Of a stretch of DNA of 14,360 nt, positions 1-14,360 are shown piece by piece. Origin of the DNA: an uncultured Deinococcales bacterium (GTDB lineage Bacteria > Deinococcota > Deinococci > Deinococcales > JAAFIG01). Within the stretch, counting starts at the first letter, position 1. Each line of letters starts with the position of its first letter. The notes under the pieces are model-generated. The model was given only the letters and a program-made list of their open reading frames with translations, was not told the DNA's origin and did not search any database. A program made the position numbers and the translations under genes. The stretch lies in NCBI GenBank assembly GCA_964247135.1, contig CAXTTL010000076.1, forward strand, positions 4,880 through 19,239, in the 5' to 3' direction.

Positions 1-38
1 AAATCACATGGTCTTGTCTAAATCACATGGTCTTGTCT
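1..38. repeat. 19-bp exact tandem duplication AAATCACATGGTCTTGTCT x2
   Basis: Positions 1-19 and 20-38 are identical. It lies at the window edge, so a contig-end or assembly artefact cannot be excluded. Confidence 0.85.
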
Positions 39-56
39 CGAGATCAAGACCATGTG
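24..56 (-). terminator. Hairpin just downstream of the 66..797 gene, possible intrinsic terminator
   Basis: 12-bp perfect inverted repeat CACATGGTCTTG (24-35) / CAAGACCATGTG (45-56) around TCTCGAGAT, about 10 nt past the stop codon. The U-tract on the minus strand is weak. Confidence 0.5.
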
Positions 57-65
57 CACCAACAT

Positions 66-797
66 TTAAGGAAGGTAATTGCCTGGGGTGGCGAGCGTGC
101 CTGGTTTCATGGTGTATTGACCGCTAATCCCGAGCAAGAAACCGCCGTTGAAGCCCGTATAAACGCCCAAACGAAATTGCGGAACAATGTCGTAATACAA
201 ACCGGCTCGGATGTCATAAACCAGACCTGCGCCCGAGGTTCCAACGCTCGAGATGTTGTTGTAACCGACACCAGCCTGGGCGTAAAGCGAAAGCGCACCG
301 ATGGGTTCAAATTTCAGACCTCCGTAAGCACTGATTGAGGGATTCAATGCGCCAACGCTGAAGTTGTAAGCCAAAGCACCGTCCATGCCGCCGTAAATTT
401 TGACAAAATCGGCGACGCCGTAACGACCAAAAACCCCCGCATTCACGTCTGCACTGACCGAGACTGGCGATGGCAAAATTTGTAAGTTCACACCTGCACC
501 CGTATAAACGTTGACGTAGGTTTTGCTGGTATCAATCACTTGCATGATGTATTTGGCGCCGATTCGGGTGCCGAGTCCAAATTGGGCGCTCGAAGGTGCG
601 CTGGGCACAAAAACAAGATTTAAGCTGCCACCAACGAACAGGTTTGGGATGACCTCGTAACTGTAATTGAGTCCGGTGCCAATGCTAAAATTGGGCGAAA
701 TCGGGGCATCGACGGTCACTGAAAAGCCATCGGCGAGGGCGGGAGCGTTGAGGGCGAGTAAACCTGCAAGAGCAATAATGATGGAACGTGGTTGCAT
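66..797 (-). CDS. Secreted protein, probable outer-membrane beta-barrel (243 aa)
   Basis: Start moved to the ATG at 797, which has an AAAGGA SD upstream. Signal peptide MQPRSIIIALAGLLALNAPALA-D. The mature chain is a series of amphipathic G/Y/F/V-rich beta-strands (LFVGGSLNL, VNVYTGAGVNL, LSLYAQAGVGY, YDIRAGLYY). No family recognised. Confidence 0.75.
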   Translation of the reverse strand: MQPRSIIIALAGLLALNAPALADGFSVTVDAPISPNFSIGTGLNYSYEVIPNLFVGGSLNLVFVPSAPSSAQFGLGTRIGAKYIMQVIDTSKTYVNVYTGAGVNLQILPSPVSVSADVNAGVFGRYGVADFVKIYGGMDGALAYNFSVGALNPSISAYGGLKFEPIGALSLYAQAGVGYNNISSVGTSGAGLVYDIRAGLYYDIVPQFRLGVYTGFNGGFLLGISGQYTMKPGTLATPGNYLP

Positions 798-940
798 AAG
801 ATTCCTTTCGATCATAAACCTCGAGTTCGGCTTTTGAGGCGCGAGGTCCATGTCAATAACGGTTGAGGGCTTGGGTTGGGAATGTGGGTGTTGCGTTTTT
901 TTGATTGAAATGACTTTTAATTTAACGACTTGTGACTCAA

Positions 941-1186
941 CTACTTGGTCTTTGCTTTGGCGTCATGGGCTGCCGCTTTGACCTTACCAACACCAGCTTT
1001 TATATTTTCACTGACTTTGGTGATCGGGTTGTCGCTCGCCTCTGCTTTGACTTCATGAACTGCCGCCTTGGCGCGTTCGGTGGTTGCCTTCACTTTTTCA
1101 CTGGCTATACCCGCTGATGTCTTGGCGCTTTTCACCGCGTCTTTGGCAACCTTGGTTGCGTCATCAATAAAAGTTTTATTGGTCAT
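941..1186 (-). CDS. Small Lys/Ala-rich LEA/hydrophilin-like protein (81 aa)
   Basis: ATG at 1186 preceded by AAGGGAG SD. The sequence is dominated by A/K/E/D/T/V in amphipathic-helix periodicity (AKDAVKSAK, KATTERAKAAVHEVKA, KVKAAAHDAKAK), with no Cys, Trp or Tyr. Confidence 0.7.
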   Translation of the reverse strand: MTNKTFIDDATKVAKDAVKSAKTSAGIASEKVKATTERAKAAVHEVKAEASDNPITKVSENIKAGVGKVKAAAHDAKAKTK

Positions 1187-1375
1187 ATCTTCTCCCTTGC
1201 TTTCGTGCCTTAGGCTAAAATCTACGGCTGATGATAAGTTGAGGGCTAACTGAATGAAGATCAAATGTAGCTTGCATTGATCGTCAAGGCACTTTTAAAC
1301 CCGAGCGACTTTCAAGGTCACTGTGGGCAGGAATCTCGAGCATTTGAGGAGATTTCAACGCCTCTGTGCAATCTG

Positions 1376-1423
1376 TCCAACGCTACACAAAGCCGTGCTT
1401 TCCGACGCTACATAAAGCCGTGC
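1376..1423. repeat. Imperfect direct repeat (23 bp, period 25) duplicating the USP stop-codon region
   Basis: TCCAACGCTACACAAAGCCGTGC (1376-1398) vs TCCGACGCTACATAAAGCCGTGC (1401-1423), 21/23 identical. Confidence 0.85.
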
Positions 1424-1860
1424 GCCGCTTGAACCCGCACCGGAACAATCTGCACCGGAATGCTCGAGCTGCCAGCCACGGCTTGCGCCCCCGAACCCAG
1501 TTGCAGACGTTCAATGCCCTCCCGTCCGTGCGTGCCCATGACAATCAAATCGGCTTTTTCGGTCTTCGCCACCTCGAGAATGAGCTTTGCAACACTGTCA
1601 CTGCTGCTGACCAGGCGAATCTGAGGTTCAAACCGTGCCTGCTTGGCAAGTTCGGTCAGCCAAAAGCCTTCTTGGCTCAATTCGTCAGATTCATTTTGAA
1701 CATGCAACAACGTTTCATTTTGAACATGCAACAACGTTTCATTTTGAATATGCAGCAACGTCACCCGAGGACCGAGCAACCTCGAGAGGTCAAAAGCGTG
1801 TCTGGCAGCAATTTGGCTGCACGGGTCATTGCCGAGGGGAATCAGGATGTGTCGGTACAT
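1408..1860 (-). CDS. Universal stress protein (single USP domain)
   Basis: N-terminal MYRHILIPL, RVTLLH strand, and ADLIVMGTHGREGIERLQLGS with an intact G-2X-G-9X-GS motif, then IPVQIVP. Confidence 0.92.
   Translation of the reverse strand: MYRHILIPLGNDPCSQIAARHAFDLSRLLGPRVTLLHIQNETLLHVQNETLLHVQNESDELSQEGFWLTELAKQARFEPQIRLVSSSDSVAKLILEVAKTEKADLIVMGTHGREGIERLQLGSGAQAVAGSSSIPVQIVPVRVQAAHGFM
1690..1761. repeat. In-frame 24-bp tandem repeat x3 inside the USP gene
   Basis: TTCATTTTGAACATGCAACAACGT at 1690-1713 and 1714-1737 (identical) and at 1738-1761 (2 mismatches). Encodes TLLHIQNE-TLLHVQNE-TLLHVQNE. Confidence 0.95.
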
Positions 1861-1938
1861 GAATCAGCCTTTAAGAACAACAACCCAATTTGTTAATGAA
1901 TCGAAAAACGCTGTAGGGTAAGAAATATTTATAAGGTT

Positions 1939-1970
1939 ACTGTGAAACCCGAGCATTACAAAGCCATTAC
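1939..1970 (-). promoter_or_regulatory. Putative SARP-box promoter for the USP gene: GTAATG-N5-GTAATG-N9-CACAGT
   Basis: CATTAC at 1954-1959 and 1965-1970 (11-bp period). The -10-like CACAGT on the minus strand is at 1939-1944. Same geometry as three other sites in the window. Confidence 0.6.
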
Positions 1971-1999
1971 CGTGAATTCTGATTGTGCTGCAAGGCGTT

Positions 2000-2031
2000 G
2001 TAATGGTTTTGTAATCTCGAGGTTGAAAACT
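2000..2031 (+). promoter_or_regulatory. Putative SARP-box promoter for the regulator (autoregulation): GTAATG-N5-GTAATC-N9-AAAACT
   Basis: GTAATG 2000-2005, GTAATC 2011-2016, AAAACT 2026-2031. Confidence 0.6.
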
Positions 2032-2080
2032 GAACAGACAACGATTCAGACACGTCAATTCAGAAACCCGAGGTCAGACC

Positions 2081-2914
2081 ATGAACAAACTTGAGATCAA
2101 CACCCTTGGAAAAAGCGAAGTGCTGATAGACGACGTTCCTGCCCAGTGGCACGCCCAAGCCGCCCAAGAATTGTTCTTTTACCTGCTCTCGCACGTTGAG
2201 GGTTGCCGCAAAGAAGAAATCCTCGAGCAACTCTGGGGCTTAGAACCAGACGCAAACGCCAACAACCGTTTTCGGGTGACCGTTCACCGCGTTCGCACGG
2301 CTCTTGGGCGATCCGACGCGCTGCAAGAAGAATTTGGGCGCTACCGCCTCTCGAGCGAAGTCTTGATGGCGACCGACGTGCATCAATTGTATTTGACCCT
2401 CGAGCAAGCCAACCACACCAGCGAACCCGCCGTGCGACAGCGCCTGTATCAGCATGTCTTAAATTTGTACCACGGCGATTACCTGCCTGGCGAGCACGCC
2501 GATTGGGCGCGTGCCGCCCGCGAAGAGTACAAATCGGCTTACGTCCGTGCGGCGCTCGAGTTGAGTTTGATTTATTGCGATCACGGTTCTTGCGATGCGG
2601 CGGTCGGCGCTCTGGTGAGGGCGCTAAAAGCCGATCCGTTTATCGGCGAAAATTACCATCAAAAATTGATGACCTGTTTAAGTGTGGTCGAAGGCAAGTA
2701 CGCCTCGATAGAACATTACCGACGGTTTTTAAACTTCTTGCGCGAAGAACTCGACGACACGCCGATGGGCGAAACCAAGGATTTGGCAGAACGCATCAAA
2801 GCCGGTGAAAGCATCTGCAACCGCCGACCAAATGAGCATTTAACCCTCAATTGCCCATTGACCTCGGATGGTTCTTGCCCAGGCGTGTTCGGTGAACTGA
2901 TCAAACTCACCTAA
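2081..2914 (+). CDS. SARP-family (OmpR-like wHTH + BTAD) transcriptional regulator with Cys-rich C-terminus
   Basis: LEINTLG..EVLID start, ELFFYLL, EEILEQLW, FRVTVHRVRTALG recognition helix, BTAD motifs LYHGDYLPG..DWA..RE, ALKADPF.E.YHQKLM and ELDDTP..ET. GAGG SD upstream. Seven Cys at 42, 166, 171, 199, 246, 258 and 266. Confidence 0.88.
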   Translation: MNKLEINTLGKSEVLIDDVPAQWHAQAAQELFFYLLSHVEGCRKEEILEQLWGLEPDANANNRFRVTVHRVRTALGRSDALQEEFGRYRLSSEVLMATDVHQLYLTLEQANHTSEPAVRQRLYQHVLNLYHGDYLPGEHADWARAAREEYKSAYVRAALELSLIYCDHGSCDAAVGALVRALKADPFIGENYHQKLMTCLSVVEGKYASIEHYRRFLNFLREELDDTPMGETKDLAERIKAGESICNRRPNEHLTLNCPLTSDGSCPGVFGELIKLT

Positions 2915-2932
2915 ACTCAAGTCGCAATTGAG

Positions 2933-2962
2933 AACCTCGAGCGACTTGACGCTCGAGGTTTT
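2933..2962. terminator. Hairpin between convergent genes, probable (bidirectional) intrinsic terminator
   Basis: 11-bp perfect inverted repeat AACCTCGAGCG (2933-2943) / CGCTCGAGGTT (2950-2960) with a 6-nt loop, running into TTTT on the + strand. Lies between the stops at 2914 and 2970. Confidence 0.7.
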
Positions 2963-2969
2963 GTGATCT

Positions 2970-4610
2970 TTAACGCAAGATCGTCAGCAGCAACTGCGCA
3001 ATCAAAATTTTGCCAATCATCGCCATCGGGTACACGCTCGAGTAACCCATGTTTGGCAAGTCATTTTGGGCACGTTCATTGGCAAAAGCCAGAACGGCGG
3101 GTTGGGTTTGAATGCCCGCCAGCATTCCAGTCAACATCGGAAACGAAATTTTAAGGACTTTATAACCCACCCAAAGCGTTAAAAAAGCCGTGAAACACGT
3201 GACCAAAGCGCCGATCAAAAACAACAGTATGCCGCCGCCACCCGCAAAGGTGCTGACAAACGCAAAGCCCGAACGCGTGCCGACGCCCGCCAGAAACAAA
3301 ATCACGCCCAGTTGCCGCAAGGTCAAATTGGCGCTGTGCGGCAACTGCCAGACCACCGAGCCGGTGCGACCGAGCGCCCCAAAAATCAAACCCACAATCA
3401 ATGGACCGCCCGCAATGCCAAGTTTTAAACTCGAGCCACCAGGCAACGGCAGACTGATCGCGCCGAGCAGCAAGCCCAGCGCAATGCCGACGCTGAAGGT
3501 CATGACATCAATCTCCGAGATGGCGCGGTACGAATCGCCCAGCGCTTTTGCCACCCCGTTCATCTGATCTGGCGCACAGACCACCCGCACCCGATCTCCC
3601 AACTCGAGTTTGAAATCTTTACTTGGCAGCAAATCCACATCGCCGCGCCCGACCCGCGTGATGATCGCGCCAAAATGTTGTGGCAACTCGAGTTGGTTTA
3701 AGCTCTTTCCCGCCACGCTGGGGTTGGAAACCAGCACCCGACGAAAATCGAGGTTCGAGCGGTTTAACTCGAGTGCCTCTAAGCTGGGTTCGCCCAGCTC
3801 GTTCATGACGGCGCCCACCTCAGACGGCGAACCCACCAAACTGATGACGTCGCCAGGTTGCAGGCGCGTTTGGGGACTGACCAGACTGAGGTTATTCGCG
3901 TGTTGATACCGTCCAAACACCACATGCCAACCGCGTTCTTTGGCAATTTGTGTGATCGGCTGGCTCTGAAAGTTTGATGATGTCACCACCACACTCTGAT
4001 GCGTGATGCCCTCAAAAGAACCCTTCAACTCTGAAGCTTTGCTCGCCTCGAGCCTTTGATCGATACGCCAGACGCGCTCGAACAAACCGATTGCCAGCAG
4101 CATTCCAATCACCCCAATCGGGTACGCCACCGAATACGCCACGACCGGTTCGACCAAAACCTGCTCGAGAAGCGCTTTGGGGGCGAGAGACTTGAGCGTC
4201 TCGAGTGCCCCAGCGAGGGCTGGGGTGTTGGTTAAAGCCCCTGCGAACAAGCCAGCGGCACTGGTAGACCTGAGTTTGAAAAGCAGGCTGGCAAAAACCA
4301 CCACAGCGCCCGCCGCAAACAAAATTCCGAGCGCGAACAAATTATCGCGCAAACCCTTGCGCCGCAACGCCGCAAAAAAACCAGGTCCGCTCGAGAGACC
4401 AATCGTGTAGACAAAAAGAACCAAACCAAACTGATACACGACTTCTGGCAACTTCATGTCGCTCGCCAGCGAACCAAACACCAAACCCGTGAACAACACC
4501 GCCGAGACCCCAAGCGAAAAACCAGCCAATTTCAAACGCCCAATCGGGTAGCCAATTCCAGCCACCAAAAACAACAGCAACAACGGACTTTGCTCGAGCA
4601 ACCCCAACAT
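2970..4610 (-). CDS. AAE-family (AspT/YidE/YbjL) transporter with two TrkA-C (RCK_C) domains
   Basis: Duplicated membrane domains with GLVLFVYTIGLSSGPGFF, GLFAGALTNTPALA, YSVAYPIGVIG and GLLLG..LG.AGGPLIVGL.LG, LRQLGVILFLAGVG, G.LAGIQTQPAVLAFA, GYSSVYP. Soluble central region with LQPGDVI and LELGDRVRVV. AAGGAG SD. Confidence 0.92.
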   Translation of the reverse strand: MLGLLEQSPLLLLFLVAGIGYPIGRLKLAGFSLGVSAVLFTGLVFGSLASDMKLPEVVYQFGLVLFVYTIGLSSGPGFFAALRRKGLRDNLFALGILFAAGAVVVFASLLFKLRSTSAAGLFAGALTNTPALAGALETLKSLAPKALLEQVLVEPVVAYSVAYPIGVIGMLLAIGLFERVWRIDQRLEASKASELKGSFEGITHQSVVVTSSNFQSQPITQIAKERGWHVVFGRYQHANNLSLVSPQTRLQPGDVISLVGSPSEVGAVMNELGEPSLEALELNRSNLDFRRVLVSNPSVAGKSLNQLELPQHFGAIITRVGRGDVDLLPSKDFKLELGDRVRVVCAPDQMNGVAKALGDSYRAISEIDVMTFSVGIALGLLLGAISLPLPGGSSLKLGIAGGPLIVGLIFGALGRTGSVVWQLPHSANLTLRQLGVILFLAGVGTRSGFAFVSTFAGGGGILLFLIGALVTCFTAFLTLWVGYKVLKISFPMLTGMLAGIQTQPAVLAFANERAQNDLPNMGYSSVYPMAMIGKILIAQLLLTILR

Positions 4611-4648
4611 GATGTCTCCTTGTGAAACTCGAGATGCGCAAACTTTTT

Positions 4649-4773
4649 CCCTCTCATCCCCAACCCTTCTCTCCTGGGAGAGAAGGGAGCTTTATTGCTC
4701 TACACGTGTGGCTCGAGGGGTTTTGTCCTTCTCCCTGCGGGAGAAGGTGTCAGCGAAGCTGACGGATGAGGGG
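4649..4773. repeat. REP/CIR-like intergenic palindromic element (CCCTCTCCC/GGGAGAGGG type)
   Basis: Hairpins CCCTTCTCTCC/GGAGAGAAGGG (4664-4687), CCTTCTCCC/GGGAGAAGG (4727-4747) and GTCAGC-GAA-GCTGAC (4749-4763). The ends CTCATCC (4653-4659) / GGATGAG (4764-4770) are complementary. Confidence 0.7.
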
Positions 4774-4774
4774 A

Positions 4775-6634
4775 TTACTCTGGTGCCAAACCCCAGTGTT
4801 CGGGCGCACGCCAGAGGCTCGAGAGGATCAGTTCGCGGATAAAGATAAATTCTTTGGGCAGCTTGTCGTAAAGTTTAAAGAACAATTCGTCGTGACCGAC
4901 GATCTCTCGCTGCCATGCTTCACGCTCAACGCTCATCAGGTTTTCAAAATCGTCCCTCGAGAAATCAAGTCCGCGCCAATCGATGTCCTCATAGGTTGGC
5001 ATCCAACCCAGTGGGCTTTCGATGCTGGCGGCGTGTCCTCGGGCGCGTTCGACAATCCATTTTAAAATACGCATGTTCTCGCCAAAACCAGCCCACAAGA
5101 AATTGCCGTCCTTGTCTTTGCGAAACCAGTTGACGTTAAAGATACGCGGCGGGTTGTGAATGCTGCGCCCGAAGTTCAGCCAGTGGTTGAAGTAATCGCC
5201 CATGTGATAACCGGTAAAGGGCAGCATGGCAAACGGGTCGCGCCGCACCTCACCGAGTTTGCCTGCGGCGGCTGCCGTCATTTCGCTGCCCATGGTGGCG
5301 GCGGCATAAACGCCGTAATTCCAGTTGAAAGACTGGTACACCAACGGCACGACGCTCGAGCGGCGACCCCCGAAAATAAAGGCACTGATCGGCACGCCAG
5401 CCAGATTATCGGCTTCTGGGTCAATGCTTGGGCATTGTGAAATGGGCGCGGTGAACCTCGAGTTGGCGTGCGCGGCTTTGCGTCCGCAATCGGGCGTCCA
5501 GTCCTGCCCAGTCCAGTCGATCAGGTGCGCGGGCGGGGTTTTGGTCATGCCCTCCCACCAGATGTCGCCGTCATCGGTCAGGGCAACGTTGGTGAAAATC
5601 GTGTTCTTTTCAATGCTCGCCATCGCGTTCGGGTTGCTCGAGGTGTTCGTGCCAGGGGCGACGCCGAAGAAACCATTTTCGGGGTTGATGGCGTAAATTT
5701 TGCCGTCGCTGCCAGGTTTGATCCAGGCGATGTCATCGCCGACGGTGGTGATTTCCCAACCCTCGTCCAAGAATAGCTTGGGCGGAATCAGCATCGCGAA
5801 ATTGGTCTTGCCGCAGGCGCTCGGGAAGGCTGCCGCAACATAGGTTTTTTCGCCCGTTGGGTCTTTGACGCCCAGAATCAGCATGTGCTCCGCCAACCAG
5901 CCCTCGTCCCGCGCCAGAACGCTGGCGATTCGCAGCGCAAAGCATTTTTTGCCCAACAGCGCGTTGCCGCCGTAGCCGCTGCCGTAACTCCAGATGCTGC
6001 GTTCCTCTGGAAAATGCGAGATGTACTTGTCGGTTTGATTGCAAGCCCAGGGCACGTCTTTTTGCCCAGGCTCGAGCGGCATTCCGACGCTGTGCAAGCA
6101 ATGAACAAAATCGTTGTCGCCCAGCACCTCGAGCACCTTGTTGCCCATTCGGGTCATGATGCGCATGGAGACTGCGACATAAGGCGAGTCCGAAATTTGC
6201 ACGCCAATGTGCGCGATGGGCGAACCGACTGGTCCCATGCTGAACGGAATCACGTACATGGTGCGACCGCGCATCGAGCCGTCGAACAACGGTGTCAAAA
6301 CCGCTTTCATTTGCTTTGGAGCCATCCAGTTGTTGGTCGGACCCGCGTCGGATTTGGCGAGGCTGCAAATAAAGGTTTTCTCCTCGACTCGAGCGACATC
6401 GTTCACGCCTGAGCGTGCCAAAAAACTGTTCGGACGCAAGTTTGGATTCAGGCGAATAAACGTGCCGCTCTCGACCATCTGCTCGCACAAGGTGTCGTAC
6501 TCGAGTTGCGAGCCGTCGCACCAATGAACCTTGTCTGGCTTGCAGAGCGCTGCGGTTTCTTTGACCCACTCGAGCAAACGGGCGTTGCTGACAAAACTTG
6601 GCGCTGAACTGAGGGGCTTATCGGCAATCAACAT
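4775..6634 (-). CDS. pckG: Phosphoenolpyruvate carboxykinase (GTP) (619 aa)
   Basis: Signature motifs [74 protein letters not shown] and VNWFRKD. Start moved to the ATG at 6634, which has an AGGAGG SD. Confidence 0.97.
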
Positions 6635-6688
6635 GGTTTTCCTCCTGGGGTTCTCGAGCATCCATCTCGAGAGAACCTTCACCAGCCA

Positions 6689-6720
6689 AGTCTGGAGGAA
6701 CGGCATTACCGAGGCATTAC
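6689..6720 (-). promoter_or_regulatory. Putative SARP-box promoter for pckG and the AAE transporter: GTAATG-N5-GTAATG-N9-CAGACT
   Basis: GGCATTAC at 6702-6709 and 6713-6720 (11-bp period). The -10-like CAGACT on the minus strand is at 6689-6694. Confidence 0.62.
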
Positions 6721-6740
6721 GAACTGCGCTCGAGGGACTG

Positions 6741-6772
6741 GTAATGCCCTGGTAACGAGCAAAACCTAAACT
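6741..6772 (+). promoter_or_regulatory. Putative SARP-box promoter for CBS-USP: GTAATG-N5-GTAACG-N9-TAAACT
   Basis: GTAATG 6741-6746, GTAACG 6752-6757, TAAACT 6767-6772, then an AGGAGG SD and the ATG at 6790. Confidence 0.65.
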
Positions 6773-6789
6773 TTGTTCAGGAGGTTCTT

Positions 6790-7200
6790 ATGCAAGTCCG
6801 CGAATTCATGACCACCAACCCCGTCACGGTGCATCCAGACACCACCATGCCCGCCGCCAGCGAATTGATGAAAAAAGGCGGTTTCAGACGCCTGCCGGTG
6901 GTTGACAACCACCAAAAAGTTGTCGGCATCATCACCGACCGAGACGTGAAACACGCCATGCCCTCGGACGCGACCTCGCTTTCGATCTGGGAAATCAATT
7001 ACCTGGTCGCCAAAATCAAGGTCGGCGAAATCATGTCGCACCCCGTTCATTTTGTGCTCGAGGATGCCAGCCTCGAGTACGCCGCCGAACAAATGCTGAA
7101 ATACAACATTGGCGGTATGCCCGTCATGCACGGCGATCAACTGCGCGGCGTGATCACCACCACCGACGTACTGCGAGCCTTTGTCGGTCACAGAGAGTGA
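6790..7200 (+). CDS. CBS-domain pair protein (AcuB-like Bateman module, no ACT domain)
   Basis: VREFMTTNPVTV, RRLPVVD..VVGIITDRD, KVGEIMS.PV and IGGMPV..LRGVITTTDVLRAF. The PSDATSLSIWEINYL linker is typical of AcuB-like proteins. AGGAGG SD. Confidence 0.92.
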   Translation: MQVREFMTTNPVTVHPDTTMPAASELMKKGGFRRLPVVDNHQKVVGIITDRDVKHAMPSDATSLSIWEINYLVAKIKVGEIMSHPVHFVLEDASLEYAAEQMLKYNIGGMPVMHGDQLRGVITTTDVLRAFVGHRE

Positions 7201-7207
7201 GGGCAAG

Positions 7208-8074
7208 ATGTTCAAGCATATTTTGATTCCGGTGATGCCCGAACCATGCAGCGAACAAGCCGCGCTGATGGGTTTGGACTTTGCCAAACGCATCAAGGCT
7301 CGGGTGACCTTTACTTACGTCATGACCAAACTCGACACGACCACCTACGCTCGAGGGTTGCTGGGCACCTGGAAAAACCGCGCCGTAGAAAAAGGCGTGA
7401 TTAGCGATGAGCTGCTTTTGCAAAACCTTGACATGCACCTTGGCGATGCGATTGCCAAGGAAGCCAACCACGAAGATTACGACCTGATTTTGATGGGCAC
7501 CCACGCTCGAGAAGGCTTGAATCGGCTGCTGCTGGGCAGCGTTTCTGAGCGCGTGGTTCGGATGGCACACATTCCAGTCATGGTTTCCAGGGCGGCAACC
7601 AACGCAGAATTTAAACGAATTCTTGTTCCCCTGGACAGCACCCTCAGCAGTCTTCAAATCGTCGAGAGCGCCAAAAAACTGGCGCTCGAGTTGCCCGCAA
7701 AATTGCACTTTGTTCACGTCGTACAGGACGTTCCAATGCCGTTTAGCGATTCGTTTGGAACATACGGCGCTTTTGATGCCGCAGGCTTGTCAAAATCATT
7801 CGAGGAAACGGGGAAGTTAACACTTCAAAAAGCCGTGGCGCTGTGCCCAGAATTAACGCCCACAACCAGTATTTTGCACGCCAACACCAGCCAGATTCAC
7901 AACGTTATTTTGGGCAGCGCCAAAGACGTTCACGCCGATCTGATCCTCATGGGCACCCACGCTCGAGCTGGCATGGAACGCCTGTTGCTGGGCAGTGTGA
8001 GCGAGGGCGTGGCGCATCACGCCAACGTGCCAGTGTTGTTGATGCGCCCGACGATGGTCAAAGCTGAAGCCTGA
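7208..8074 (+). CDS. Tandem (two-domain) universal stress protein (288 aa)
   Basis: MFKHILIPV...DLILMGTHAREGLNRLLLGSVSERVVR..IPVMV, then FKRILVPLD...DLILMGTHARAGMERLLLGSVSEGVAH..VPVLLMR. The ATG at 7208 is 7 nt after the CBS stop, suggesting an operon. Confidence 0.93.
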   Translation: MFKHILIPVMPEPCSEQAALMGLDFAKRIKARVTFTYVMTKLDTTTYARGLLGTWKNRAVEKGVISDELLLQNLDMHLGDAIAKEANHEDYDLILMGTHAREGLNRLLLGSVSERVVRMAHIPVMVSRAATNAEFKRILVPLDSTLSSLQIVESAKKLALELPAKLHFVHVVQDVPMPFSDSFGTYGAFDAAGLSKSFEETGKLTLQKAVALCPELTPTTSILHANTSQIHNVILGSAKDVHADLILMGTHARAGMERLLLGSVSEGVAHHANVPVLLMRPTMVKAEA

Positions 8075-8252
8075 GTTCGTGAAGGCTCGAGAAACAGCTA
8101 GGGCTTGTTTTCTCTTGAACCCCTTTCTTAAAAAGCAGCACTGCAGCACTGAAAATCGTGCCAAGCAAATAGCCAATTCCAGTGCAAACCACCGCCACCC
8201 ACAAGGTGATATTCCAAACTTTAGCGCCCAGACTCGGGCAGTAAAACCTGCG

Positions 8253-8283
8253 GGTGACGGTGCTCGAGGTGGCGGTGCTCGAG
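8253..8283. repeat. 15-bp tandem duplication containing CTCGAG
   Basis: GGTGACGGTGCTCGA (8253-8267) and GGTGGCGGTGCTCGA (8268-8282), 1 mismatch. Confidence 0.7.
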
Positions 8284-8376
8284 TTGCGTGATTGCGCTTT
8301 GAATGTGGTGTAAATCGGTGTGACGCCAGGATTGCCAATCTCGGGCAGCAGAGCGATTTTATGCCAACCTCGAGTC

Positions 8377-10941
8377 TTAACCTGGAACGCCAACGCTAAT
8401 CAGCACGGTGTCTGTGCCTGTTAACCCCTCATCGTCGGTGATGGACAATTTGAGCGTCAGGAAGGCGGCTGGTGAGGCGCCATAACCGTAGTCGGCAGGG
8501 CTGAAACACGCAAATGGAATGTTGAGCAATTTGCAAGTTTTGGGCGTCACCACGGTTTGTGTGCTGCCAATTTTGATGCTCCAGACAACAGTGTATTGCG
8601 TGGTTGGCGTACCACCTGGGTCATCGTTGGAGTAACTGAGACGAATGGCAGTGTTGGGATTCGGAAATGTTTGTCCCGCCGTTGGCGATAAAATTTTTAC
8701 TGCTGGCGGTCCCGCCAAGGGTTTGGTGGTGACGCTGATCACCACGCTTGCCGTCCCCGTCAAACCGTAGGCATCTGTCCCTTTCAGCGTGATCGTGCGC
8801 TGACCGGTCGTGGCAAATTGCGCCGTAAATTCGCAGCCCGCTCCAAGCACGTCGCTCGAGTTGCTCGATTTCCAGGTCAGGGCGGTGCAGGGCAATTCGC
8901 CAAAAATCCCGTCGCCGTCAATTGAGCTGCCCTTGAACGTGACCTGTGTGCTGTTCGCCCAGATCACAGCGCCAGGCAATGGCGCGTCAATGAAGACTTT
9001 GGGCGCTTGGTTGACACCCGTAACCGTGATGGTGGCGCTGGCGGTTGCGCCTTTGTCATCGGTGGCGGTTGCCGTAATCTTGCGCGTGCCCGGACTGCCA
9101 AAACCGTAATTGATGCTCGAGCCTGTGCCGATGGTGCCGTCAATATCCGAAGTCCAAACCACGGTTGGCGCGGGTCCGTCCGCATCGTTGGCATTGGCGG
9201 TGTAGGTGGTCACGGTCGCGTATGGGAAGCTCGAGTTTGTGGTGGGCGCGGTGATTTGAATGCTTGGAATTGAATTGGGCGTGCTCTTAAATTCGGCGCT
9301 GGGTTTGGAGGCAAAGACCGTGACTTGCGTGAAATACTCTTTTGCCCAAGTTACCGGCACGTAAATATAGCCCGCATCGCCAAAGCAGTAACCCCAAGAA
9401 TTCTTGACGATAAAATATCCACCGCCAGAATTGCTCGAGGCATCCTTGACGTTGCCCGGCAGGTTTGGGTGGGCTTGAATATCGCTATCGGAGACAAAGC
9501 CCACCACTTGTACGGCGTGTCGCCCTCGGTTTTTGATGTCGGTCAGGGTGGTGATAAAGCCGTTTGGGCTTGGGTGGTCAAAACCAAAATTCACCAGGAT
9601 TCCGGCGACCATCGGGTGTCCGTGACGCAACAAGGAACGCATTTCGTCCACGGGCAAACTGCCGGTGCTGTACCAGTCGTAAATCGTGTCCGGTTCGGAT
9701 TCTTTAAACTTTTCACCCGTGGCGGGCGGCATGTGATACCCACACACTGGGTCACCGCCTGGCGGGTAGGTGCAAATTTCTTTTAACTGGTGCGAGGCGT
9801 CCGAGCAAAATTCGCTGTAACCAACACAGCTCGAGCTGTAATATTCGTCATTTTCGTGATCGACCCGCTTTCTGGAGGTGTTGTAATTCCAGACTTGCTC
9901 GAGTGGCAGCGCAAAATTCTGCTCGAAAAAATCCTCGGCACGGTTGGGCAGTATTGTGCCGTCCCCGTACTCTCGAGCGTCCCAGTCCGAGGCAATCTTG
10001 CCCCACAGGTATTGTTCGGAGACATTCACCCAACGGCTTTTTTCAATCGCAATCCGAGTCTCGAGCGCCCCCGCCAACGCAAACGCCACGCATGACCCGC
10101 GACGTCCTTGGGCTTTGACGCTGGTGGCGTAAAACTTTTGTCGCCACCAAAAATTTTTTGCCAAGCCAAAATCGGTTGCGGTGTTGCACTCGTCGTGTTC
10201 ATGGTCGATGCCTTTGCCAGCGCCCTCCTCGAGGTTTGCCGAGGCTGGGTAACCCGCAGGTTTGGCATCGGGCGCAATGCTGCGCGATTTTAAGCTGATC
10301 GCTCGAGCGTCCAAGAGTTCCAATGGATTGTCTTTTAAGCGCTCACCCAAGGCTTTTCTGGCGTTTAAAATCGTCTCGAGGTTCGCACCCGCAAGACTGT
10401 CGGGCGTGACCAAACCTGTTCGTAAATTTTCGGCAAGCTCGTCGTAACCGGTGCGGTAAATCCTGATTTGACCGCTCAAATCTTCAAACTTTTTTCGGGA
10501 CTCGAGCATGTCGGCGTACAAAGCACGTTTGCCGTCGGTCACAACTTCAAACGCACCTTTGTTGCCTTGAACGGTAATCAGGTAATTGCCGTCGGGCAAG
10601 ATTTTTAACGTGCCATCGGTGGTGTCAGGCTCGGTCAGCGCTTTGTTGTAGGCAGGAGATTGCGCTGCGAGGCGTTTCACCTCATCGGTATCGGCTTTGA
10701 ATTTTGCGGCGGTGGCTGCTTTGCGCTCGGCACGTAATTTGAGGGTGTCTATCGAAAAGCCTTCGGTGGTGCTGAGCGTCTTAAATTCTTCTGGCGTGAC
10801 CACCTGGGCATCTGTGGGAACCGTGCCACCAAAAGTGTTTTCGGGCTTGAACAACGGATCGGTTTGGGTTGGTGGGTCGGTTTGACAGGCAACCAAAATG
10901 ATCAACAGCACAGCCAGCAAGAACTTCCAAAGTTTTTTCAT
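8377..10941 (-). CDS. Lipoprotein C1A (papain-like) cysteine peptidase with C-terminal Ig/PKD-like domains (854 aa)
   Basis: Lipoprotein signal MKKLWKFLLAVLLIILVA-C. Catalytic motifs VKAQGRRGSCVAFA (Gln, Cys), VSEQYL, RHAVQVVGF (His) and YFIVKNSWG..FGDAGYIY (Asn). Three Thr-rich Ig-like units follow (WTSDIDG..GTRKITATATDDKG; GQRTITLKGTDAYG; LKLSITDDEGLTGT). GGAGG SD before the ATG at 10941. Confidence 0.9.
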   Translation of the reverse strand: MKKLWKFLLAVLLIILVACQTDPPTQTDPLFKPENTFGGTVPTDAQVVTPEEFKTLSTTEGFSIDTLKLRAERKAATAAKFKADTDEVKRLAAQSPAYNKALTEPDTTDGTLKILPDGNYLITVQGNKGAFEVVTDGKRALYADMLESRKKFEDLSGQIRIYRTGYDELAENLRTGLVTPDSLAGANLETILNARKALGERLKDNPLELLDARAISLKSRSIAPDAKPAGYPASANLEEGAGKGIDHEHDECNTATDFGLAKNFWWRQKFYATSVKAQGRRGSCVAFALAGALETRIAIEKSRWVNVSEQYLWGKIASDWDAREYGDGTILPNRAEDFFEQNFALPLEQVWNYNTSRKRVDHENDEYYSSSCVGYSEFCSDASHQLKEICTYPPGGDPVCGYHMPPATGEKFKESEPDTIYDWYSTGSLPVDEMRSLLRHGHPMVAGILVNFGFDHPSPNGFITTLTDIKNRGRHAVQVVGFVSDSDIQAHPNLPGNVKDASSNSGGGYFIVKNSWGYCFGDAGYIYVPVTWAKEYFTQVTVFASKPSAEFKSTPNSIPSIQITAPTTNSSFPYATVTTYTANANDADGPAPTVVWTSDIDGTIGTGSSINYGFGSPGTRKITATATDDKGATASATITVTGVNQAPKVFIDAPLPGAVIWANSTQVTFKGSSIDGDGIFGELPCTALTWKSSNSSDVLGAGCEFTAQFATTGQRTITLKGTDAYGLTGTASVVISVTTKPLAGPPAVKILSPTAGQTFPNPNTAIRLSYSNDDPGGTPTTQYTVVWSIKIGSTQTVVTPKTCKLLNIPFACFSPADYGYGASPAAFLTLKLSITDDEGLTGTDTVLISVGVPG

Positions 10942-10962
10942 GATCAACGACCTCCGCGCTCG

Positions 10963-10996
10963 AGCTTAGATTAAGCGGCGTTGCGCGGGCGTTGCG
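10963..10996 (-). promoter_or_regulatory. Putative SARP-box promoter for the protease: CGCAACGCC-N2-CGCAACGCC-N8-TAAGCT
   Basis: Perfect 9-mer GGCGTTGCG at 10977-10985 and 10988-10996 (11-bp period). The -10-like TAAGCT on the minus strand is at 10963-10968. Confidence 0.62.
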
Positions 10997-11001
10997 TGGT
11001 T

Positions 11002-14000
11002 TTAAAGTTCGAGCAGGTCGCGGTATTTGGTGGCAAAGCTTTTTTGAAGTTCTGGAAATTCCTCGAGTGAAGTTTTCATCTCGAGCAAGATAATTTTGGT
11101 TTTTGCTCGAAACTCGAGGGCGTATTGAGGCTCGAGCATGTCAATCAAAACACGGCGCAACTCGAGGCTGGCGAGGCATGGTGGGCTGGTTTCGAGCACC
11201 TGGAATGCAGCTTCGAGGTCTGGCTGTAAATCCAGAGTGTGTTGTGCTTTCAACTCGAGGCTCAAGAGTTGCAGTTTGGCTTCTGGGAAAACTGAAGGTT
11301 TTAAAGACTCGAGTTGCGCAAGGGTTTTGTCCGATTGTTCAGTTTGCAACCAAAGGGTTGCTTGGATCAGCCAAACTTCGTCTTTTTCTTGCTGTTCACT
11401 GCGTCCAAAATGCTCAAACGCCACGCCAAGATGCTGGGCAGCATTTTGAGGGTTTTGAAGCTCGAGTTCGGTTTTGGCAAGCCCAGTCTCGAGCGAACAG
11501 ACATAAGCCATACTGCCACTGTTCAGGGCAAGTTGAAGCGCTTGCTGGTACAACGCCTTGGCTTGAATGGTTTGCCCAATTCCGAATAAAAATCCTGCCA
11601 GGTGATTCTGCGCCAGAATTTCTGAAGCAACACCTGCAATCTTGGCTTGCTCAAGTGCCATTTGAAAGCTGGCAAACGACGGTCCAAGTTGACCATTCAA
11701 GGCGTGCCATTTGGCTTGCAAACACAACAAACTGCTGCGCCACAAGACATCTCCGCTCTTGGTTGCCAACATTAAACCTTGTTCAATATTTTGACTGGCT
11801 TCTTTGAAACAAAACAGGCGCAAATGGTTGTACCCCAACCAGGTCAGGGGAAAAACCTGTTCTGGGACATGCCCAATTTTTTGTGCCAACTCGAGCGAGC
11901 TTTTTAGTTTTTGAATTGCACCCAAGCCATCACCTCGGCTGGTGGCAATACGGGCAAGAGCAGTCAACGCCTCGAGTTTCCCAGCCAGATTTCCCGTGTT
12001 TTCCAGAAGGGCTAAACCCAATATGGTGTGCTGTTCAGCACTTTGAAAATCACCTTCGTAAAGGGCAATCGCTCGCAATTTACTGTGAATTTCACCGAGC
12101 GTCTCAGGCTCGAGCAGGTTTGCATTTTTAAGGGCAAAATGCAGGTCGGCTTTGCCCGTTTGCAATTGACCAATCCTGAACAATCCACTGCCCCGCTCGA
12201 GCAATGCCCAGGCAAGCTCACCAGGTTCGAGGTTCTGCGTTAAAAGTTGATTGATGGTCTGGATGGCTTGAGCATGTTGTTGCAGGCTGTTGTAATGTTG
12301 TGCCAACCTGAGTTGCGTCGCAATTTTCAAAGGCGGGTCGTTTAAGCTTATTGCAATTTCACGCATCGTTTCGAGCGCCCCGAGACGCTCTGCTTGCCGT
12401 CCGAGTGCTTCAAAAAGTTGCGCCCGAGCCAAATGAATTTCAAAGCGAACTTTGTCGCTTGCCCCGTTCAGTGCCAACTGATACTGCGCCAGTGCCTCCG
12501 TGTTGGCGTAAACCCGTCTGGCGGCTTCGGCGGCTCTCAGACGCCACGCCACCGCCTGCGCCGCCCGTCCCGCCCGCTCGAGGTGATCGGCAATGCTGGC
12601 TGGGGCGGCGTTCAGTCTCTCGAGGCTGGCAGCCAGTTTGGAGTGCAGCAATTTTTTTCGCGCCAAGCTCAGGTTCTCGGCAAGGGCGCTGCGCATCAGG
12701 TCGTGGCTAAACCTGTAACCTTCCCCAAATGGCTCAAGCACCCGCGCCGAGATTGCCAACTCGAGGGCTTCCAGCCCTTCCCAGTCGGACAATGCGGTTG
12801 CGCCACGCAGCGTCTCGAGGTCAAAGCCGTCGTTGGTTAAACTCGCGGCTTCCAAGAGTCGCCCCGTTGCCGCGCCCAAAATTTTGACGCGCCGCAAAAC
12901 CACTTCGCGCACGCTTGGCGGGATCGGCAGTTCGTCAGTCTGGTCTTGAATCCAGACCCCTTCTGGGGTCGGTCGCAAAAAATTTGCTTCGAAGAGCGCC
13001 CTGATCGTCTCGAGCGCAAAGAACGGATTGCCGCCAGTTGCGCGGTGCAAATGCTGTCCAAACAAACCGGTGCCGCTCGAACCGATCAGTCTATTCACCA
13101 ACTCGAGCGTGTCGGTTTCTTGCAAGGCTCCGAGTTCGATGGGTTCGGCTTGGCTGGAGAGGATAAAATCTTCGAGTTTGGTCTGGGCATCAATCGAGAG
13201 TTCATTGGCGCGAAATGACAACAGCACACGCTTGTCGCTCGAGACAGCCGCAAATCGCCCAGCCAGGTACAGCACGGCTTCAAAGCTGGCGCCGTCAAAA
13301 AATTGCAGATCATCCACCAGCAAGATTGGCACGTCCTGCAAAGCCAGCATCACAAATTCGGCAAGCGCCTTCAAAAACCTCAAACGTTCCTCGGGCGAGG
13401 AGATTGGGGCGGGCAACTCGGGCGCCAAACTTGGCACGAGCCGCGAAAGTTCGGTTTGTATCCAACTCGGCAGCAACAGGGTTTCGGTCCGCTCGAGCAG
13501 GTTTTGCAGGCTGCGCGTCAAGGTCGAGAACGGCGCAACCGTGTCGCCTGGTCGTCCAATAATGTGCTCAAACGCAGCTTGTGAAGTTGCAAACTCGAGC
13601 ATCAAGCGCGTTTTGCCAACGCCTGGTTCGCCATAAAGCACGATTGGTTTTCCAGCCTGCCAAGCCGCTTGCATTTGCGCCCATGTTGCAGATCGTCCAA
13701 TCAGTGGCACAGTCAAGAATTGCGCTTGGCTCAAAGGCTGGGCTTTCACTTGAGGCTCGAGCGTTTTGGTGGCGCGAATGCTGGCTGCCAGCTTTAGCGT
13801 TTCGGGCAAGGGCGTCAGACCCAATTCCGTCTCGAGCATGGTCTTACATTGTTCAAACTGCAACAACGCCGCCTCACGCATTCCGAGCAAGGCGTACAAA
13901 CGCATGACATCGCGGTGGGTGCGTTCCTGAAACAAGTTCAATTCAAGCAACCCATGATGAATCTCGAGCGCCTTGCGCCACTCGCCCCTGGTTTCAAGAA

Positions 14001-14360
14001 GCTCGGCACGCTCGAGCATGGCTTGTCGCCGTGAACGCTCAAAGCGCTCTCGTTTTTGGGTCAACCAGTCATGAAATTCGGTCGCGCCCTCGAGTTCCAA
14101 ACCCTCAAGCAACACGCCGTTGTAAAAGCCGAGTGCCTGTTCGACCTGACCAGCCTCGAGTGAGCGCTCAAAAAATCCGACATCGGTCTGAAACCCAGCT
14201 CGCAAGCCCAAACTGTGCTCAGACACCTCGAGTTGGTCGTTCAAGGCGGGCGAATCGTTTTTCAGGCGGTGCAATTCGCGCCGCAAATTGCGCCGTGCCG
14301 CCTCATCGGTCACTTCGGACCACAACAAACCCGCCAGTTTAGATCGTGGTGTCAAACCCT
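11002..14360 (-). CDS. Large SARP/BTAD-AAA(STAND)-TPR transcriptional regulator, 5' end outside the window
   Basis: wHTH remnant (PRSKLAGLLWSE..ARRNLRRELHRL), BTAD (YNGVLLEGL..FHDWL..RERF; ELGLTPLPET), PLIGR, Walker A GEPGVGKT, Walker B LLVDDLQ, ATGGNPFF, YRFSHDLMR, then a long helical TPR-like C-terminus. The frame stays open to the window edge. Confidence 0.9.
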   Translation of the reverse strand, partial: GLTPRSKLAGLLWSEVTDEAARRNLRRELHRLKNDSPALNDQLEVSEHSLGLRAGFQTDVGFFERSLEAGQVEQALGFYNGVLLEGLELEGATEFHDWLTQKRERFERSRRQAMLERAELLETRGEWRKALEIHHGLLELNLFQERTHRDVMRLYALLGMREAALLQFEQCKTMLETELGLTPLPETLKLAASIRATKTLEPQVKAQPLSQAQFLTVPLIGRSATWAQMQAAWQAGKPIVLYGEPGVGKTRLMLEFATSQAAFEHIIGRPGDTVAPFSTLTRSLQNLLERTETLLLPSWIQTELSRLVPSLAPELPAPISSPEERLRFLKALAEFVMLALQDVPILLVDDLQFFDGASFEAVLYLAGRFAAVSSDKRVLLSFRANELSIDAQTKLEDFILSSQAEPIELGALQETDTLELVNRLIGSSGTGLFGQHLHRATGGNPFFALETIRALFEANFLRPTPEGVWIQDQTDELPIPPSVREVVLRRVKILGAATGRLLEAASLTNDGFDLETLRGATALSDWEGLEALELAISARVLEPFGEGYRFSHDLMRSALAENLSLARKKLLHSKLAASLERLNAAPASIADHLERAGRAAQAVAWRLRAAEAARRVYANTEALAQYQLALNGASDKVRFEIHLARAQLFEALGRQAERLGALETMREIAISLNDPPLKIATQLRLAQHYNSLQQHAQAIQTINQLLTQNLEPGELAWALLERGSGLFRIGQLQTGKADLHFALKNANLLEPETLGEIHSKLRAIALYEGDFQSAEQHTILGLALLENTGNLAGKLEALTALARIATSRGDGLGAIQKLKSSLELAQKIGHVPEQVFPLTWLGYNHLRLFCFKEASQNIEQGLMLATKSGDVLWRSSLLCLQAKWHALNGQLGPSFASFQMALEQAKIAGVASEILAQNHLAGFLFGIGQTIQAKALYQQALQLALNSGSMAYVCSLETGLAKTELELQNPQNAAQHLGVAFEHFGRSEQQEKDEVWLIQATLWLQTEQSDKTLAQLESLKPSVFPEAKLQLLSLELKAQHTLDLQPDLEAAFQVLETSPPCLASLELRRVLIDMLEPQYALEFRAKTKIILLEMKTSLEEFPELQKSFATKYRDLLEL

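Follow-up and report, generated by a model that had tools for sequence, protein, structure and literature searches.

CTCGAG as a highly iterated palindrome maintained site by site in an uncultured family of Deinococcales

The stretch of DNA analyzed here (the window, 14,360 nucleotides) covers positions 4880-19239 of contig C76 in the assembly of an uncultured Deinococcales bacterium, the source genome G000, and is crowded with the palindromic hexamer CTCGAG. It is nearly certain that this word is a true highly iterated palindrome (HIP) of the family to which the bacterium belongs (family f1), and that each copy is held by a weak bias at the DNA level. The force targets the DNA itself instead of the gene product, and it overrides synonymous codon choice. 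Known palindromes of this kind are HIP1 (GCGATCGC) and the alternate HIPs, all from cyanobacteria (Elhai, 2015, PMC4390886; Xu et al., 2018, PMC5861425; PMC13756078).

A preliminary description of the window had listed 91 copies of CTCGAG, and an exact recount gives the same number, each copy at the position given there. By comparison, 200 dinucleotide-preserving shuffles of the window contain 2.43 copies on average and seven at most. Within eight open reading frames (ORFs) 76 copies are found and 15 lie outside, where about 16 had been counted. The ORF copies occupy all three frames (50 as CTC|GAG, 8 as xCT|CGA|Gxx and 18 as xxC|TCG|AGx), as had been read from the copies at 2222 (Leu-Glu), 2350 ((Leu)-Ser-Ser) and 7506 (Ala-Arg), and the largest gap (Table 1) stays below the limit of about 600 bp that had been named. 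Contigs of relatives about 90% alike (four runs, three studies), obtained from sequencing runs sharing a small fraction (5-6%) of words, partly cover positions 4000-9000 of the window, and none of the best-supported 40 of 732 differences falls inside a motif. The strain itself was present in no public run.

The array is not a local peculiarity. The assembly of G000 (5.09 Mb in 386 contigs, 84% complete, 52.7% G+C, no 16S rRNA found in it) contains 33,925 copies, or 6.66 per kb, which is 24.8 times the expectation from composition and 14.4 times that from a second-order Markov model, so that the excess of at least ten-fold that marks a HIP is seen under both nulls. CTCGAG is the commonest hexamer of the genome and the runners-up, GCTCGA and TCGAGC, are overlaps of CTCGAG itself. 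Across 319 segments of 10 kb the mean is 66 copies (standard deviation 12, minimum 26, maximum 100), and only two of the 386 contigs have fewer than 3 copies per kb. Furthermore, the word is shared throughout the clade, as is typical for a HIP: all 19 genomes of the family, 18 besides G000 and together representing five genera, carry it at 4.3-6.8 copies per kb. The enrichment is therefore genome-wide and not confined to the contig of the window. The spacing of the copies in G000 is approximately geometric (mean 148 bp, standard deviation 143, maximum 2,644) and fits random placement with a 7-bp exclusion. The sole periodicity is the 3-bp one of the codons, and a quasi-periodic spacing of the HIP1 type was not found. 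A spacing of 6 never occurs; it would create the mirror word GAGCTC, of which G000 contains 0 copies.

Here, the comparison of coding and non-coding DNA is informative, based on crude gene calls for G000 (4,550 ORFs of at least 100 amino acids, 87% of the DNA). Outside the called ORFs the density is 7.61 per kb compared to 6.52 per kb inside, the non-coding observed/expected ratio reaches 33.9, and spacers of all orientations are densely occupied (convergent 8.3, tandem 8.1 and divergent 7.0 per kb). The ORF copies are distributed over the frames as 17,579 CTC|GAG, 4,584 xCT|CGA|Gxx and 6,703 xxC|TCG|AGx. If synonymous codons are permuted within genes, which preserves every protein and the codon counts of each gene, 4,050 copies are obtained on average and 4,106 at most in ten runs, against 28,866 observed, a 7.1-fold excess; permutation of the codon order leaves 1,698. 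Thus, as in a HIP, the word occupies all coding frames as well as non-coding DNA beyond what codon use provides, and the earlier judgment that codon usage alone is insufficient survives a codon-preserving shuffle. The protein-preserving null is conservative, since the proteome itself has already been altered. Leu-Glu pairs number 22,935 in G000 compared to 9,616 expected from amino-acid frequencies, while the reverse pair Glu-Leu occurs 9,694 times. Of the Leu-Glu pairs 77% are spelled CTCGAG, compared to about 5% predicted from codon use off the word (CTC 0.148, GAG 0.324). The proteome has gained roughly 13,000 surplus Leu-Glu pairs through the word.

One could argue that codon-pair or dipeptide usage, base composition, or an artefact of assembly or binning produces this pattern, since 17,579 of the 28,866 ORF copies are in-frame Leu-Glu and viral contigs of high GC content can attain 3-7 CTCGAG per kb, in most cases alongside as many copies of GAGCTC. 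This explanation can be regarded as refuted by the 7-fold excess over the protein- and codon-preserving shuffle, the higher density of non-coding DNA, the complete lack of GAGCTC, and the occurrence of the word in 18 further genomes that were assembled independently, including a closed one, which also support the sites independently of the reads. The genome-wide process at the DNA level that had been proposed from the window is borne out: non-coding DNA is as dense or denser, all three frames are used, synonymous sites are held and residues are changed.

How the word intrudes into proteins can be followed in the window in the gene for GTP-dependent phosphoenolpyruvate (PEP) carboxykinase (PEPCK), whose product is 96% identical to its counterpart on a contig of a Deinococcales metagenome-assembled genome, in line with the assignment to Deinococcota that had been guessed before. 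In comparison to 79 orthologs of other phyla, several motif copies encode residues peculiar to their own lineage, namely Leu68-Glu69, Leu45-Glu46, Arg-Ser-Ser449 and Thr-Ser-Ser355, each of which is present in none of the 79. Leu68-Glu69 is an amino-acid change that creates the word, and the copy lying over an invariant Ala-Arg-Val arises from synonymous codon choice alone (Table 1). Three further motif sites encode minority residues, found in 20, 21 and 23 of the 79 orthologs, respectively.

Table 1. Features of the window (positions within the 14,360 nucleotides) and methylase lineages profiled across the family.
Feature	Position	Strand	Remarks
CTCGAG array, 91 exact copies	37..14232	.	158 bp apart on average, largest gap 573 bp
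Two intergenic copies, 4628 and 4712	4628..4717	.	spacer between permease and PEPCK genes
GTP-dependent PEP carboxykinase gene	4775..6706	-	Pfam PEPCK_GTP and PEPCK_N; 12 motif copies
PEPCK copy encoding Arg-Ser-Ser, residue 449	5355..5360	.	0/79; Arg-Ala-Thr 20, Arg-Ser-Thr 14, Arg-Ala-Ser 11
PEPCK copy over invariant Ala-Arg-Val (79/79)	6388..6393	.	GCT CGA GTx
PEPCK copy encoding Leu68-Glu69	6500..6505	.	0/79 Leu-Glu; Glu-Glu 46, Ala-Glu 18, Asp-Glu 10
Intergenic copy	10959..10964	.	between papain-like protease gene and BTAD-AAA-TPR regulator gene
C36 N6_N4 methylase (G000)			orthologs G002, G007
C14 C5 methylase (G000)			orthologs G001, G012, G018
C178 C5 methylase (G000)			orthologs G001, G002, G007
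C207 N6_N4 methylase (G000)			orthologs G006, G009, G017, G018
C320 Dam-like methylase (G000)			orthologs G001, G002, G003, G005, G011, G018
TaqI-like methylase of G009			matches G014 only
C51 methylase (G000)			matches in 8 other family genomes

Maintenance of the single copies was analyzed by aligning 204 kb of G004, a genome of the same genus, to G000 at 83.9% identity. In G004, 1,092 of 1,408 G000 sites (77.6%) are intact, compared to 42.8% for all hexamers, which places CTCGAG first among 1,286 hexamers with at least 60 occurrences; as for HIPs, the conservation between relatives exceeds the neutral expectation. Identity is 0.92-0.95 at each of the six motif positions, compared to 0.78-0.89 for flanking positions. 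Synonymous third positions, counted in genes on the displayed strand only (about half of the sites), reveal the same. In CTC codons, the third-position C is unchanged in 267 of 300 cases (89%) before GAG and in 222 of 397 (56%) elsewhere, and the G of GAG in 269 of 299 (90%) after CTC and in 232 of 392 (59%) elsewhere. Likewise, the third position of CGA is kept in 65 of 77 cases (84%) in the word compared to 100 of 151 (66%) outside, and that of TCG in 93 of 114 (82%) compared to 175 of 271 (65%). Non-coding sites are conserved as well (74.1%, n=189, against 39.7% for all non-coding hexamers). Turnover is roughly balanced, with 316 sites present only in G000 and 244 only in G004, and the differences are mostly single transitions spread over all three position pairs. 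Sites with another copy within 30 bp are conserved to 75.4%, those with none within 250 bp to 80.4%, and conservation is also independent of the quality of the flanks. The sites are kept one by one, independent of neighbours and flanks, which argues against signals that need just one copy per region.

The force on the word is weak. Its scaled strength would be about 3.2-3.5 judged from abundance (observed/expected 25-34) and about 1.7-2.8 judged from loss rates, which relative to synonymous sites amount to 0.18-0.25 in frame 0, about 0.3 in non-coding DNA and about 0.4 in the other frames; the estimate is rough, as the neutral rate is near saturation. In non-coding DNA the word is, after normalisation, 15-60 times commoner than its one-off neighbours. 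These single-step neighbours are not depleted: the transition neighbours stand at 1.2-1.8 times expectation genome-wide, in line with decay of an abundant word. Codon-biased genes partly resist the word, with a density of 7.48 per kb in the least and 5.18 in the most codon-biased tenth of genes as ranked by the effective number of codons (Nc; Spearman 0.25, p ~1e-26, n=1,807 genes). Among the ribosomal and translation genes that were located, S7 contains 0 sites and EF-G 4.2 per kb. Furthermore, the word is accompanied by a weak, symmetric flank preference, A at -3 (0.43), G at -1 (0.35), C at +1 (0.36) and T at +3 (0.43), which holds in non-coding DNA too (n=4,510). This symmetry suggests the trace that a dimeric DNA-binding protein would leave.

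Such a protein could maintain the word in a simple way, if each copy is under weak natural selection as a binding site for an abundant factor and every extra site provides a tiny gain in fitness. Candidates would be a nucleoid or chromosome-organising protein, a 'self' mark for a nuclease acting in defence or recombination, or a palindromic Chi-like attenuator. The maintenance per site, a strength comparable with codon selection and the uniform density in all contexts would fit to this, as would the symmetric 12-bp preference, which suggests a dimeric binder; in addition, no methylase is needed, in line with the negative methylase searches described below. Nevertheless, no candidate protein is known and the spacing is random instead of regular. 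Since clustered sites are kept like isolated ones, the benefit has to stay additive down to one site per 150 bp, and a selection coefficient of about 1/Ne (Ne, effective population size) at each of tens of thousands of sites represents a heavy load. We consider selection of binding sites possible, though doubtful.

Our tentative preference, held with low confidence, is biased mismatch correction or gene conversion towards the intact word. Here, a sequence-specific protein would recognise CTCGAG with the weak symmetric flank preference given above, and would bias the correction or conversion towards the strand carrying the intact word. Losses would then usually be reverted and chance gains usually be fixed. 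Multi-copy genomes are known for Deinococcus and Thermus. In genomes of the family, which are presumed to be multi-copy and recombination-proficient, such a bias would behave as weak selection at every site. This would be a ratchet of the kind that Elhai proposed for HIP1.

Several observations weigh against this interpretation. Both the polyploidy and the repair step are assumed for the genomes of the family, biased repair and weak natural selection per site are not told apart by the data, and the two strength estimates lie up to twofold apart. A decay signature of 5-methylcytosine is absent, since transitions destroying the word are about equal at all three position pairs. The searches for a recogniser were negative. 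For the XhoI-family nuclease (PF04555) they gave no hit in the 19 family genomes and a single one among 31 Deinococcales genomes overall (G021); 14 control genomes lacked it as well, so that the sensitivity of the search rests on the G021 hit alone. Orthologs (63%) of the methylase linked to that nuclease are present only in G022 and G027 and none was found in the family, where matches have 31-47% identity and are mostly confined to the conserved motifs of the C-terminal region. The family genomes are rich in restriction-modification genes and G000 itself contains recognisable methylases of five Pfam classes. Seven methylase lineages were profiled over the 31 genomes (Table 1), with orthologs called at 50% identity or more for five G000 methylases and all matches within the E-value cut-off accepted for the G009 and C51 proteins. 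None of the seven is family-wide; each is present in 2 to 9 of the 19 genomes, G000 included. In a survey of methylase classes in five good family genomes, no N6_N4 methylase was found in the closed G011 and no C5 methylase in G008. D12-class methylases are present in all five, although they belong to at least four unrelated lineages of at most 37% identity, and the Eco57I-like proteins are 22-39% identical.

In the sequences searched, no conserved orphan methylase of the HIP1 kind has been found. This falls short of proof of absence, because the specificity of an enzyme is not readable from its sequence, completeness is 57-94% for most genomes, and the site could be common to enzymes unrelated to one another. 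The link to a methyltransferase that had been suggested by analogy to HIP1 is not supported so far, with no XhoI-family nuclease in 19 genomes and none of seven lineages family-wide. A screen of the G000 ORFs for [DNS]PP[YFWH] gave 45 matches, of which the 20 checked by Pfam were mostly unrelated enzymes. It delivered one new candidate, a TaqI/BseCI-like methylase at C51:9055-10599, whose structural model (predicted local distance difference test 68) finds M.BseCI as the best Foldseek match (E 2e-13), followed by CamA, MmeI and M.TaqI. This gene is part of a two-gene unit restricted to the family (G000:C51:8405-10599; L228:851-3045), in which a 217-amino-acid protein overlaps a gamma-class adenine methylase of 514 amino acids. 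The partner, about 220-260 amino acids long across the loci, may contain a PD-(D/E)XK-like motif as read from the alignment, and Pfam gave no match. Homologs occur in nine of the 19 family genomes, with identities following taxonomy (93%, 59%, 42-48%). In the closed G011 the partner is reduced to a remnant of 83 amino acids and the methylase lies downstream of dprA, an adjacency not seen in the other loci; in genus g5 the catalytic NPPW reads NFPW. Present in only nine of 19 genomes, the C51 methylase was rejected as the conserved factor; together with its partner it seems to form a further restriction-modification pair.

CTCGAG is a classic type II site. An ordinary restriction-modification system of the XhoI/PaeR7I type, with all sites methylated and the abundance as a by-product of protection, would be in line with this and with genomes that are rich in such genes and avoid other palindromes (GAGCTC, 0 copies). 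However, restriction normally results in avoidance, as for these other palindromes, and neither the nuclease (0 of 19) nor orthologs of the XhoI-linked methylase were found in the family, which makes this origin highly improbable. The sole XhoI-family nuclease among the 31 Deinococcales genomes belongs to another family (G021:C1:74896-76793; L181:1198-3095), where its gene is convergent with that of an N6_N4 methylase, in a genome with an unremarkable 1.7 CTCGAG per kb. Several other palindromes are nearly absent from G000 (GGGCCC 1, CGGCCG 3, AGGCCT 4, CGTACG 5, GGATCC 7, CCGCGG 11 and CAGCTG 15 copies), and GGCC and CTAG occur at 0.02 and 0.07 of expectation. Across the family, GAGCTC has 0-25 copies in most genomes and is relaxed in G008 (568), G010 (161) and G015 (114). 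This scarcity of palindromes points to a long-standing restriction pressure of the SacI type and others.

Within the order, the trait is graded and not all-or-none, with a weaker enrichment at the DNA level in single samples of three families other than f1. Among the 251 genomes sampled, 232 lie outside the family, including the unpublished G250, on which no claim rests, and none of these exceeds about 3.5 CTCGAG per kb. In samples of 18-20 kb, one per genome, CTCGAG ranks first among the hexamers of genera g13, g22 and g24 (family f5) and g41 (family f2); in g21 (family f2) it tops the 5.4-kb sample of G132 and not the 20-kb sample of G059. For these five genera the whole-genome observed/expected ratio is about 6 to 11, the spelling CTCGAG for Leu-Glu is 1.7 to 9 times more frequent than expected from codon use, and non-coding DNA holds 1.7-3.8 copies per kb. 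Samples of g9 (f5) and g33 (f3) display no excess beyond codon use. Genus g7, the largest one of family f3 (65 genomes), strongly avoids the word, which sister families accumulate: it has 26 to 1,010 copies in 1.9-6.1 Mb, or 0.01-0.27 per kb compared to about 0.34 expected. A search of three g7 genomes gave no XhoI-family nuclease. Identical aligned site positions in other genera and families were rejected as proof of common ancestry, because conserved Leu-Glu pairs would be independently recoded to the word.

A bolder proposal would be that Deinococcales carry a methylase-independent system which writes and repairs one hexamer by biased mismatch correction or gene conversion between genome copies. 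We regard this as rather unlikely; the same holds for the history that it would imply, in which the system is ancient in the order, strongest in family f1, weaker in several families and has given way to avoidance in the largest genus.

The force has not yet left its mark on foreign DNA. In G000, 15 genes are free of the motif compared to 1.3 expected. Among them are low-GC genes of defence or foreign character, namely a reverse transcriptase fused to a trypsin-like peptidase domain (C4:51606-53234, 35% GC), an AbiEii-like AAA_21 ATPase (C20:8448-9575, 26% GC) and an O-antigen ligase; the first is, from its domains and composition, probably a defence-associated reverse transcriptase on imported DNA. 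Several solute-binding proteins of ATP-binding cassette (ABC) transporters with normal GC are motif-free, too. The motif-poor set of normal GC comprises C1:85083-86447, C101:6270-7430, C105:7990-9093 and C90:9284-10246 with zero copies and C78:7786-9228 with one copy. It consists mostly of ABC-transporter solute-binding proteins and one permease, and one gene has an Nc of 34.5 (very strong bias). These genes may be highly expressed ones that resist the word, or recent imports from relatives without it.

Genes of foreign origin without the word would also be expected under molecular drive via natural transformation, in which CTCGAG is an uptake or recombination-enhancing signal comparable to the uptake signal sequences (USS) of Pasteurellaceae and the DNA uptake sequences (DUS) of Neisseriaceae. 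Deinococcus and Thermus are naturally competent, which would fit. The word is common to many genera and weaker in other families, like the 'dialect' of a clade, and it enters coding regions and alters peptides, as uptake sequences reportedly do. Precedents exist in HIP1, which is reported to improve transformation in a methylation-dependent manner (bioRxiv 10.1101/2024.09.10.611283) and to correlate with type IV secretion proteins (PMC13756078). On the contrary, six bases are far below the length of known uptake signals and 6.7 per kb is far above their density of about 1 per kb. With 10-30 copies per fragment an extra copy should barely matter, yet sites with close neighbours are kept equally well. 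Uptake by Thermus is reportedly sequence-independent, and the genus-sized group g9 displays no enrichment beyond codon use. Altogether, drive appears improbable as the source of the excess, and biased correction or conversion is the explanation tentatively carried forward here.

Some further observations concern the window and its surroundings. The spacer between the permease and PEPCK genes contains a doublet like repetitive extragenic palindromes (REP) at 4650-4773, with two GC-rich hairpins (4664-4687 and ~4727-4747) enclosed by the inverted arms 4650-4659 and 4764-4773; the motif copy at 4712 sits within it. A DNA search revealed well over 100 partial copies of this doublet in five genomes of the same genus. 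Two regulators with a BTAD domain are present in the window (2081-2914 and 11002-14358), the second being a large BTAD-AAA-TPR protein that continues past the window end, and a third such protein is encoded at G000:C341:222-3227. A scan of viral contigs for clustered CTCGAG did not pick out phages of the family and mostly gave high-GC contigs rich in GAGCTC. Four IMG/VR contigs (L303, L288, L360 and L310; 63-69% GC) combine 3-4 CTCGAG per kb with 0-2 copies of GAGCTC. They may be phages of intermediate Deinococcales genera, since their profile of the two words matches that of these genera.

To our knowledge, HIP1 has lacked an explanation for about thirty years, and its study has been limited to one phylum. 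A second and denser case, with another word in another phylum, allows comparisons that are impossible within one lineage. The gradient inside the order, from strong over intermediate and none to avoided, is suited for phylogenetic profiling of the responsible gene, and the leading model for HIP1 can be tested against the apparent lack of a conserved methylase. Since the intermediate families include genomes of isolate quality, experiments would become possible if cultured members carry the word. In the genomes described here CTCGAG is a strong marker of native versus imported DNA. Furthermore, about 13,000 extra Leu-Glu pairs skew codon and amino-acid statistics, so that annotation and evolutionary models should allow for this bias. 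If a methylase-independent repair system does exist, iterated palindromes would be a general outcome of repair instead of a cyanobacterial peculiarity, and whole proteomes would have been remodelled by it.

A literature search, with subscription journals outside its coverage, gave no report of a CTCGAG excess in Deinococcota, and the only paper in which the word, Deinococcus-type names and over-representation came together concerned the mapping of 5-methylcytosine and a CTCGAG methylase of Halorubrum. Elhai (2015; PMC4390886) and a paper of 2026 in Genome Biology and Evolution treat HIPs as cyanobacterial. New here are the test of independence from neighbours, the estimate of a strength that codon bias opposes, a flank preference that extends to non-coding DNA, a gradient across the order that includes one avoiding genus, and the systematic negative result for methylases.

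Among the known systems, the XhoI/PaeR7I systems (PF04555) recognise the same six bases as the iterated word. They differ from the situation in the family, as neither the nuclease family nor an ortholog of the linked methylase was found in the 19 genomes and restriction predicts avoidance.

The repair enzyme Vsr resembles the mechanism proposed for CTCGAG, in that a sequence-specific mismatch correction enriches a palindromic word genome-wide; together with Dcm it is said to raise CCWGG in E. coli. Very short patch repair acts on T:G mismatches at one position only, depletes the matching one-off word and results in a modest excess. In contrast, the six positions of CTCGAG are about equally protected, no neighbour is depleted, the excess is 25-fold, and G008 maintains the word with no C5 methylase found. 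Neither protection of one position nor depletion of a one-off word was observed (identity 0.92-0.95; neighbours at 1.2-1.8 times expectation). Single-mismatch repair such as that by Vsr does not fit, because no single-step neighbour is drained.

CTCGAG resembles uptake sequences as a clade-specific word that accumulates in coding as well as non-coding DNA and puts constraints on the peptides encoded. USS and DUS are 9-12 bp long, not palindromic and present at about 1 per kb, and uptake sequences accumulate by drive. CTCGAG does not have this form of an oriented word of 9-12 bp at about 1 per kb; it is a palindrome of 6 bp, present at 6.7 per kb with no sign of saturation.

The closest relationship is to HIP1. 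Both are short GC-rich palindromes, tens of times over-represented, in all coding frames and in non-coding DNA, conserved beyond neutral expectation, clade-wide and scarce in foreign DNA, and the function of both is unexplained. HIP1 and the alternate HIPs accompany specific methylases according to Elhai (2015), and no conserved cognate was found for CTCGAG. Its spacing is random, whereas that of HIP1 is described as quasi-periodic (Xu et al., 2018, as cited in PMC13756078). CTCGAG further differs by its phylum, its word and its length, a hexamer instead of an octamer. It is about six times denser than the approximately one copy per kb that Elhai cites for HIPs, and the same order also holds a large genus avoiding the word.

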